Source of the DNA: Escherichia coli
Lineage (GTDB): Bacteria; Pseudomonadota; Gammaproteobacteria; Enterobacterales; Enterobacteriaceae
DNA: 64,000 bases
Direction: 5' to 3' (one strand)
Assembly (NCBI RefSeq): GCF_009931435.1
Contig: NZ_CP043414.1
The notes under the pieces are model-generated. The model ran no database searches and was not told the DNA's origin. It worked only from the letters and a program-made list of their open reading frames with translations. Position numbers and translations under genes: made by a program. Of the stretch, positions 10,034-58,459 are shown one piece after another (position 1 is the first letter of the stretch; each line of letters opens with the position of its first letter).

Positions 10034-10078
10034 AGGGCAAAGCGGAAACAGATAAGACTGGCATAAATGAAGAAGAAA

Positions 10079-10123
10079 TGGCGCGCCCTGCAGGATTCGA
10101 ACCTGCGGCCCACGACTTAGAAG
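10079..10123 (-). repeat. 45-bp copy of the 3' end of tRNA-Arg (prophage attachment-site repeat, distal end)
   Basis: Sequence tggcgcgccctgcaggattcgaacctgcggcccacgacttagaag identical to 58383..58427; diverges afterwards. Confidence 0.8.
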
Positions 10124-10546
10124 TTCCTAGAACGACATTTTAAGTCAACAACTTACCGCGCCATCTCTGCGCTCACACGTCCCACTACCTCAAAACATGT
10201 AAAGCCTTGCAAGCCATTGCGAGGCCTTATGTGTCTCAGTTTTGTCCCTCTTTTTTGTACTAAAAAACATAGTAATTGAGGATAAACCTCATGCTATTTT
10301 CGCTTATATGCCTCTAAAGGCATGGCACTTAAATAGATAAAAGCACCACAAAAGCATAAAAAAACCACACAGTAAAACCGAAATATGAAACAATAACAGA
10401 TAATTAAACCAAAAACAGATAGCGCATTGTGATAATCATTCAATACTAAACAAAATATAAACAGTGGAGCAATATGTAATTGACTCATTAAGTTAGATAT
10501 AAAAAATACATATTCAATCATTAAAACGATTGAATGGAGAACTTTT

Positions 10547-56726: not shown

Positions 56727-57005
56727 ATGTTCAGAATCATTTTTCCTAACACCTGGTACGTCGACCACCACGGCACTCCCTGCAAAATCCTGCGTTCTAC
56801 CCACAACAAAGTTCACTACATCCGAAAAGGCAGAACATGTATCGCCAGCATGTTCCGCTTTAATCATGACTTTGAACCTGTGAATAAAGCTGATGCAGAT
56901 CGGATAGCAGAAGAGATCGAAACGGCAGAACACATTAAGAAGTTACGTGACATGCGTTCAAAAAGCAGAGGTAACCATGGAATCATACAGCCTCACACTC
57001 GATGA
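56727..57005 (+). CDS. Hypothetical protein
   Basis: ORF track 92 aa; between the traR-like gene and xis. Confidence 0.4.
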   Translation: MFRIIFPNTWYVDHHGTPCKILRSTHNKVHYIRKGRTCIASMFRFNHDFEPVNKADADRIAEEIETAEHIKKLRDMRSKSRGNHGIIQPHTR

Positions 57006-57348
57006 GGCCTGTCAGTTTCTTAAGATATCCAGACCAACCGCCACCAACTGGATACGAACAGGCCGCCTACAGGCAACACGTAAAGATCCAACCAAGCCAA
57101 AATCTCCTTACCTCACAACACGGCAAGCCTGCATTGCGGCGCTTCAGTCTCCGCTGCATACTGTCCAGGTGAGCGCGGGTGATGGCATAACAGAGGAAAG
57201 AAAATGTCACTCTTCCGCAGAAATGAAATATGGTATGCCTCGTATTCGCTCCCGGGCGGGAAACGAATTAAGGAATCTCTTGGCACAAAGGACAAGCGGC
57301 AAGCTCAGGAGTTGCACGACAAGCGAAAAGCAGAACTCTGGCGAGTAG
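56977..57348 (+). CDS. xis: Putative excisionase (HTH, AlpA/Xis-like N-terminus); 3' end uncertain, overlaps int
   Basis: ORF track 56947..57348; internal Met MESYSL..; N-terminal HTH; position upstream of int. Confidence 0.5.
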
Positions 57349-58367
57349 AAAAGCTAGGGGATTTACCTGATGTCACTTTTGAAGAGGCCTGCCTAAGATG
57401 GCTTGAGGAAAAAGCTGATAAAAAATCTCTCGATTCAGATAAAAGCCGGATTGAGTTCTGGCTTGAACATTTTGAGGGTATAAGGCTTAAAGATATCTCG
57501 GAGGCAAAGATTTACTCTGCTGTAAGCAGAATGCATAACAGAAAGACGAAAGAAATATGGAAACAGAAAGTTCAGGCCGCCATCAGGAAAGGTAAAGAAC
57601 TGCCTGTTTATGAACCAAAGCCAGTATCAACTCAGACAAAGGCAAAGCATCTTGCCATGATAAAGGCCATTCTCCGTGCTGCAGAACGCGACTGGAAGTG
57701 GCTGGAAAAAGCGCCTGTCATCAAGATACCAGCGGTCAGAAACAAGCGAGTCAGATGGCTGGAAAAGGAGGAAGCAAAACGCCTTATTGATGAGTGCCCC
57801 GAACCACTGAAATCTGTCGTCAAGTTTGCGCTGGCAACTGGTCTGAGAAAGTCGAACATCATAAATCTGGAATGGCAACAAATCGACATGCAGCGACGAG
57901 TTGCCTGGGTGAATCCAGAAGAGAGCAAATCAAACCGCGCCATTGGTGTGGCGCTGAACGATACCGCCTGTAAAGTGTTGCGTGATCAAATAGGCAAGCA
58001 TCACAAATGGGTGTTTGTACATACCAAGGCGGCTAAGCGAGCAGATGGAACATCAACGCCTGCGGTCAGGAAGATGCGCATCGACAGCAAGACATCATGG
58101 CTATCAGCTTGTCGTCGTGCAGGAATTGAAGATTTCCGTTTCCATGACCTCAGACACACCTGGGCAAGCTGGCTGATTCAGTCAGGCGTCCCATTATCAG
58201 TGCTTCAGGAAATGGGCGGATGGGAGTCCATAGAAATGGTTCGTAGGTATGCTCACCTTGCGCCTAATCATTTGACAGAGCATGCGAGGAAAATAGACGA
58301 CATTTTTGGTGATAATGTCCCAAATATGTCCCACTCTGAAATTATGGAGGATATAAAGAAGGCGTAA
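57204..58367 (+). CDS. intD: Tyrosine integrase (DLP12 IntD-like)
   Basis: ORF track 387 aa; C-terminal catalytic domain; adjacent to tRNA-Arg. Confidence 0.9.
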
Positions 58368-58382
58368 CTGATTGAATTGTAA

Positions 58383-58459
58383 TGGCGCGCCCTGCAGGAT
58401 TCGAACCTGCGGCCCACGACTTAGAAGGTCGTTGCTCTATCCAACTGAGCTAAGGGCGC
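58383..58459 (-). tRNA. argU: tRNA-Arg (anticodon UCU, argU)
   Basis: 77-nt sequence with CCA end matching argU by recall; its 3' 45 nt is the prophage attachment repeat. Confidence 0.88.

Follow-up and report, generated by a model that had tools for sequence, protein, structure and literature searches.

The stretch of Escherichia coli DNA analyzed here (64,000 nucleotides, hereafter the window) raises the question of where an excisionase gene ends. The original prediction described a helix-turn-helix ORF at positions 56977 to 57348, 123 codons long, that runs about 145 bp into an integrase gene starting at 57204 in another frame, and we found the locus to be exactly as claimed. Two readings of this layout had been offered. 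The overlap could be genuine, with the excisionase translated through the beginning of the integrase gene. Alternatively, the real excisionase could be a shorter product, followed by a frame that happens to be open. Our comparisons favor the first reading, and from sequence comparison we place at roughly 90% the probability that the ORF is a P22-type excisionase gene whose 3′ third is truly translated over the first 41 to 48 codons of the integrase gene.

We refer to the ORF as xis, a gene for a P22-type excisionase (recombination directionality factor), assigned by its reading frame and by homology. It lies on the forward strand and consists of 123 codons and a TAG stop at 57346–57348, and its ATG at 56977 has an AGAGG five bases upstream (56967–56971). 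The frame is open further upstream to a GTG at 56947, for a protein of 133 amino acids (aa); all homologues align from the ATG at 56977. On the same strand, int (57204–58367), which is intD in the RefSeq annotation, encodes a tyrosine integrase of the DLP12/ε34/P22 type (387 aa; Pfam Phage_integrase, E 5e-47). Its ATG at 57204 is preceded by the Shine-Dalgarno sequence AGAGGA at 57192–57197 and occupies the same position in 38 of 38 lineages compared. The two genes share 57204–57348 (145 bp), with the int frame at xis frame +2: the A of the int ATG is the third base of xis codon 76, and the third codon positions of int are the second positions of xis. Upstream, a DUF4222 ORF (92 aa, 56727–57005) shares 29 bp with the start of xis, and some database proteins of 206–207 aa join DUF4222 and Xis in one chain, presumably as artifacts of frameshifts or annotation.

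Profile and sequence searches place the protein in the P22 Xis family. PHROG 2907, 'excisionase', matched residues 1–116 of the protein at positions 2–117 of a 117-position profile (E 5.9e-46), and a tblastn search with Xis matched 162 phage records, 161 of them with at least 80% query coverage. Identity in the tblastn search was 80% to the annotated 123-aa excisionase of phage ε34, 76% to P22 Xis (over residues 1–122), 45–47% to the APSE phages of aphid symbionts, and about 40% to HK446, HK75, and SfX; the most distant relatives that could be aligned, at 36–47% identity, came from APSE, HK446, SfX, and Edno5. The 116-aa P22 protein is UniProt VXIS_BPP22, 'Excisionase', and, as cited in PMC7498355, Mattis et al. 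2008 reported that the purified P22 protein binds and bends att DNA. Pfam assigned HTH_17 to residues 6–36 (E 1.2e-8). The original prediction spoke of AlpA-type excisionases, a label that was not supported by the Pfam scan, which at E ≤ 0.1 returned HTH_17, HTH_23, and HTH_29 only, with no match to Phage_AlpA (PF05930). The exact 123-aa sequence is found on at least 1000 public contigs, where its usual database name is 'helix-turn-helix domain-containing protein'; one source calls it 'excisionase'. Such generic names arise because the cut-off of the NCBIfam 'excise' domain, TIGR01764, is narrowly missed: Xis residues 6–35 score 27.7 bits (E 2.7e-6), one bit short of the curated threshold of 28.8 bits.

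Residues 1–58 (56977–57150, forward strand) form a predicted winged-helix DNA-binding domain, an assignment that draws on the Pfam HTH_17 match, on an AF2 model with a pLDDT of about 85–90, and on fold matches. The best Foldseek match of the Xis model was the mycobacteriophage Pukovnik Xis (4J2N; TM 0.72–0.74, rmsd 1.6 Å), followed by BldC, RacA, the N-domains of MerR proteins, and P2 Cox, and a sequence search of solved structures with Xis gave no significant match. In the model, the N-terminal 51–57 residues superpose on Pukovnik Xis and on MerR-like/BldC proteins with TM 0.72–0.77; these proteins, however, consist of a domain of about 55 residues alone, without the 65-residue linker and tail of the window Xis. 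The linker, residues 59–76 (57151–57203, forward strand), has a pLDDT below 50 and coincides with the int leader, Shine-Dalgarno sequence, and upstream region. The whole tail is predicted at low confidence (pLDDT 47–60) and includes a helix at residues 91–113 (pLDDT 50–60). The N-terminal 55 residues of Int are predicted as three strands and a helix, with a pLDDT of about 80.

Some of these features would suit a real Xis of only about 60–76 residues, past which the frame stays open by chance. The Pfam domain covers residues 6–36 only, the AF2 tail is of low confidence, and the full ORF is uncalled by the annotation pipeline PGAP. In addition, with the Int protein sequence taken as given, few pairs of Int codons can make a stop in the xis frame, so a single open frame is not very improbable. 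The comparison across diverged lineages nevertheless makes such a short product very improbable, for the reasons given in the next two paragraphs.

Our xis-int loci came from phage records and a set of genomes limited to one per species, which together covered Escherichia, Salmonella, Citrobacter, Cronobacter, Serratia, Erwinia, Pantoea, Edwardsiella, Yersinia, Xenorhabdus, Photorhabdus, Providencia, and a Hamiltonella phage; a scan with the APSE Xis alone returned three near-identical loci only. The overlap was exactly 124 or 145 bp, with a frame offset of 2, in all 46 intact loci. This upholds the genuine overlap, shows the layout to be kept throughout the Enterobacterales sampled, and is the opposite of a family in which every member stops short of int. 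Among database proteins, full-length homologues have 110, 114–116, or 122–123 aa, and none there ends near residue 76, the position of the int start, except entries marked partial. The xis stops fall at two fixed positions only, and the overlap is free of indels, with no gaps in int codons 1–55 or xis codons 77–116 among the 38 lineages. Elsewhere in xis, indels are confined to the wing (codons 35–41) and the linker (codons 71–72), always as whole codons, and those in the linker are always of 3 nt. The arrangement itself is already known, because it is present in curated records, those of P22 and ε34 among them: the curated overlap is 124 bp in P22, SfI, ENT47670, HK446, and SfX and 145 bp in ε34 and APSE-1. 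Leong et al. reportedly described the P22 overlap in 1986.

A few records depart from this layout or carry an unexpected label. In phage SEN22, xis is frameshifted by a 1-nt change in the xis-int spacing, and in the UNVERIFIED record GE_vB_TR it contains several frameshifts; both cases could be sequencing errors or real decay, and neither record annotates xis. Enterobacterial xis-int modules also appeared on a 1.6-kb contig of a 'Collinsella sp.' metagenome-assembled genome (JAIJJM010000699.1, 99% identical) and on an 800-kb contig of 'Chryseobacterium sp. 18061' (CACSKA010000001.1, 87% identical), which are probably mis-binned or mislabeled assemblies.

If the Xis tail is translated, the codons that int uses within the overlap should reflect it, and codon-level conservation had been proposed as a check. 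We therefore compared 38 lineages, chosen so that int nucleotide identity stayed below 97%, asking, among pairs with the same Int residue, what fraction used different codons. This fraction was 0.418 for int codons 2–41 and 0.583 for codons 49–387 (Mann-Whitney p = 2.6e-7; the lineages are phylogenetically non-independent, so p-values are approximate), so that int synonymous sites are indeed suppressed where xis lies over them. In a sliding window, synonymous variability returned to background between codons 41 and 48, where xis ends. The xis frame was free of stops over the overlap in 38 of 38 lineages. As a control that takes the same alternative frame in the rest of int and preserves the phylogeny, we used 239 other 40-codon windows, in which 7% of sequences on average, and at most 34%, were stop-free. 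By the same control, the ratio of alternative-frame to main-frame identity was 0.72 in the overlap, against a maximum of 0.54 elsewhere in int.

The suppression is concentrated in particular codons, which are frozen against the usage of the rest of the gene. Int Leu26 is CTT in 38/38 lineages, giving Xis Leu102, while CTT makes up 18% of leucine codons elsewhere in int. Int Asp30 is GAC in 36/38 lineages and Int Asp39 is GAC in 34/38, against a background of 40%, giving Xis Thr106 and Thr115, respectively. A major-codon frequency of 0.9 is reached at Leu26 and Asp30, and by none of the 77 invariant-residue columns outside the overlap. At Int residue 22, which varies between Ile, Phe, and Val, the codon is always NTT (ATT, TTT, or GTT; 38/38), and Int Arg23 is always AGA (9/9) and never CGN; Xis Leu98 is invariant because of these two choices. 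Int Ala34, Leu37, and Gly19, which face variable Xis residues, use the full range of codons. Mean pairwise identity is 0.50 for the Xis tail, 0.62 for the Xis winged helix, and 0.70 for Int residues 1–40. Given an open frame in every lineage and int codons held so as to keep Xis residues, the shorter Xis with a fortuitously open frame fails, and we conclude that Xis residues 77–116 are, as judged from codon usage, translated and under purifying selection, with a weaker constraint than that on Int. The dual-coding core defined by this codon-level conservation, Xis residues 77–116 over Int residues 1–41 of the arm-binding domain, spans 57204–57324 on the forward strand.

The same suppression could in principle come from a nucleotide-level element, such as the int initiation region, an RNA structure, a promoter, or a protein-binding site, without any contribution from the Xis tail. 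Constraint does begin before the overlap, about 54 nt ahead of the int start codon: synonymous variability in xis is at background, 0.57, for codons 2–58 and drops to 0.28, 0.10, and 0.26 in codons 59–64, 65–69, and 70–76. Third bases fixed in this region form promoter-like hexamers. Within the overlap, however, the constraint acts on particular codons as far as int codon 39 and follows the Xis residues, as at Int residues 22 and 23, where Int varies or could use other codons and Xis Leu98 does not change. Between −40 and +150 relative to the int start, RNAalifold found no conserved RNA structure (−0.44 kcal/mol, no covariation), and an element of this kind leaves the missing stops, the missing indels, and the kept stop codons unexplained. 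Conserved antisense ORFs across the overlap were rejected in turn, being open in only 11–12 of the 38 lineages. We therefore regard a purely nucleotide-level cause as very improbable. Selection on the Xis tail and nucleotide-level constraint can coexist, and, given the constraint seen upstream, part of the suppression in the overlap could have a non-coding cause.

We examined the upstream signal for what it might encode. Besides Trp25 and codon 76, the only invariant or near-invariant third bases in xis codons 2–76 are those of codons 53, 62, 65, and 67, and across the 38 lineages these invariant third bases outline a hypothetical promoter-like signal inside xis at 57134–57178 on the forward strand. 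In the window it consists of TTGCGG (57134–57139), a 17-nt spacer, CATACT (57157–57162), and the block GTGAGCGCGG (57169–57178). Across the lineages it reads TTGCNG, an indel-free 17-nt spacer, CAYACT or CACAAT, about 7 nt, and GTGAGCGCGG, with the TTG of the first hexamer and the A2 and T6 of the second each kept in 38/38. Neither an overlapping ORF nor an RNA structure accounts for the signal. One possible reading, to which we give somewhat less than even odds, is that it is laid out like a weak sigma-70 promoter together with its start region and would give an int-only transcript, like the lambda promoter PI, which sits inside the lambda xis gene (PMC2951348). A sigma-70 consensus scan called no promoter in xis, and a literature search on a P22 PI promoter found nothing specific. 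Likewise, no cII-type site (TTGC-N6-TTGY) lies within or near xis, where the second cII tetrad is absent, and the lack of the TTGC-N6-TTGC site in the window xis is a difference from the lambda PI arrangement.

How the two proteins might work together can be outlined from their relatives. As in the P22 family, the N-terminal winged helix of Xis would bind repeats in an att arm, bend the DNA, and steer Int toward excision; the arm on which Xis would act as a recombination directionality factor is the one at the far prophage end. Free phages that carry an identical xis-int module lend this role indirect support. In lambda, the C-terminal tail of Xis is a protein-contact module. By analogy, the flexible linker and C-terminal helix of the window Xis, with the conserved motif E-L-x-x-L-L-x-x-R-T, may serve the same purpose, and the tail could contact either Int or Xis itself, the latter as Xis-Xis cooperativity. 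We modeled Xis fused to Int residues 1–60 with AF2, using an alignment in which fused rows carried deliberately mismatched partners because shared DNA would create covariation; the pLDDT of the tail was not raised, in a weak test in which contacts were uninspectable and DNA was absent. Since the int ribosome-binding site and start lie inside xis, the early-left transcript gives both proteins, and an int-only transcript would need a start inside xis. The broader proposal, that the 124 bp of dual coding encode both sides of a Xis-Int contact and that the synonymous sites of xis at 57134–57178 hold an int-only promoter and leader as well, is in our view unlikely. If the contact reading were true, one stretch of DNA would hold the whole evolving interface between excisionase and integrase, and recombination could not separate its two sides. 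In any case, codon choice in the Xis tail and in the arm-binding domain of Int is mutually limited, so that excisionase and integrase travel as a unit, and the pair offers a clean example of same-strand dual coding.

The two lengths of the overlap trace to one position in Int. Where Int residue 41 is leucine (22/22 lineages of this class), its codon (CTG, TTA, CTA, or TTG), together with a next codon that begins with A, makes a TGA or TAA in the xis frame, and Xis is 110–116 aa long. Where it is arginine, as in the window (CGA, 57324–57326), seven more residues follow before Int codon 48 (GTA or ATA, both rare) and the next base together make a stop. Across the aligned sequences, Int residue 41 thus toggles the Xis stop, with Leu giving the 116-aa class and Arg the 122/123-aa class to which the window belongs; a single Int substitution (Leu41/Arg41) alters the length of Xis.

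The extension itself, EKQNSGE and the TAG (57325–57348, forward strand), is specific to the 122/123-aa class. Among the 16 long-class lineages, synonymous variability at int codons 42–47 (0.51) is close to the background value (0.54), so that constraint is undetectable in the final 21 bp of the 145-bp overlap and the extra seven residues look neutral. The long-class stop (xis codon 124) is nonetheless kept in 16/16 lineages, whereas the equivalent stop is found in 7/22 short-class lineages, where the next xis-frame stop beyond the real one otherwise wanders. This difference suggests that translation continues to the end of xis and that selection acts against longer products.

We also assessed how the window locus compares with known systems. 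The xis-int pair of P22 shares its layout of winged helix, linker, and tail, its frame offset, and 76% full-length identity in Xis. It differs in its overlap, which is 124 bp in the curated record, and in its integration target, thrW in P22 and argU in the window. The window Xis is 7 residues longer than that of P22 because Int residue 41 is Arg (CGA), and not Leu (CTG/TTA/CTA/TTG class), which removes the stop. The layout comes closest to that of ε34, where the excisionase gp24 and integrase gp23 match the window in Xis length (123 aa), overlap (145 bp), and target (argU), and both proteins are 80% identical to those of the window, a divergence of about 20%; the backgrounds differ, ε34 being a Salmonella podovirus and the window element a lambdoid prophage of E. 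coli. The Int of DLP12 has been named as the closest known relative of the ε34 Int (PMC2629481).

The arrangement in lambda resembles that of the window in outline, with xis directly upstream of int, overlapping it, and both genes on the early-left transcript. Lambda Xis is 72 aa long, its overlap with int is much shorter, and the searches that we ran detected no sequence relation between it and the window Xis. The window-type overlap of 124–145 bp, in contrast, spans nearly the whole arm-binding domain of Int. The original remark that the ORF is unusually long for an excisionase therefore holds against lambda-type Xis only, since 110–123 aa is the norm within the P22 Xis family. None of this changes the current understanding of site-specific recombination, and its value is mainly practical, for annotation.

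The annotation of this gene often fails. In RefSeq records, PGAP gives the equivalent of 56977–57042 as a pseudogene of 66 bp ('helix-turn-helix domain-containing protein, missing C-terminus'), in spite of the intact ORF. It does so because the TIGR01764 score of 27.7 lies below the cut-off of 28.8, and a likely further cause is that gene callers penalize long same-strand overlaps. Many phage records list the integrase only, without xis, and the authors of the phage L genome report that xis was added by hand (PMC8022706). An overlap of 124–145 bp is ordinary for the P22-type family and is routinely missed by annotation software. As a result, an excisionase carried by thousands of E. coli and Salmonella genomes is, in many records, shrunk to a pseudogene or left out, and pipelines that judge prophage excision will under-call the P22-type xis family.

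Taken at face value, the RefSeq annotation implies that xis is a decaying pseudogene in the window prophage. Besides the 66-bp fragment flagged by PGAP, related loci do show damage, with the 5′ part of xis deleted in a K-12-like DLP12 and the frameshifts of SEN22 and GE_vB_TR. The window ORF, however, is intact, with a start, a Shine-Dalgarno sequence, and a stop at the position used by its family, and the xis-int stretch is 100% identical to that of the free phages Turner, 2G7b, ev243, PhiR26_1, PhiR30_1, and PhiR68_2. Both 47-bp att cores are also present in the prophage, and the narrowly missed TIGR01764 cut-off is a simpler cause of the PGAP call. Decay of the window gene is accordingly the least probable of the readings that we weighed, and we continue to treat xis as an intact excisionase gene.

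Comparison with DLP12 xisD had been suggested as a way to settle the length of Xis. K-12 DLP12 (intD and a xisD remnant) shares with the window its argU att site, a 47-bp repeat, and a near-identical int. In a K-12-like O16:H48 genome, homology begins only at window position 57109, so that the start and the DNA-binding domain of xis are gone while int is intact. Xis is unannotated in this K-12-like DLP12, and the window carries the complete 48.3-kb form. The xisD of K-12 is a poor comparator, of little use here, because the 5′ part of xis is deleted there.

The surroundings of the locus describe the element that carries it. The integration target is argU, a tRNA-Arg(UCU) gene called by ARAGORN at 58383–58459 on the reverse strand, and fimZ lies beyond it, matching the RefSeq context. 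The int-proximal 47-bp att core at 58381–58427 is an exact repeat of the far-end core at 10077–10123, and a 47-bp argU-derived repeat has been reported for DLP12 (PMC6379469). Together, argU, fimZ, and the paired att cores show that the prophage in argU is complete, a 48.3-kb element that represents DLP12 in its intact form. The prophage measures 48,304 bp between the att cores, compared with 48,223 bp for the free phage Turner and 48,207 bp for PhiR26_1, and given this similarity in size and the match to Turner and PhiR26_1 across xis and int, it is probably inducible, unlike the decayed DLP12 of K-12. The arm that an excisionase would be expected to bind runs rightwards into the prophage from 10124, next to the far-end core. 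At 10207–10220, about 85 bp farther in than this core, we also observed a cII-type motif, TTGCAAGCCATTGC, which in the circular phage lies in the att arm distal to int. At the equivalent place, the ε34 record annotates a 'putative CII-binding site'.
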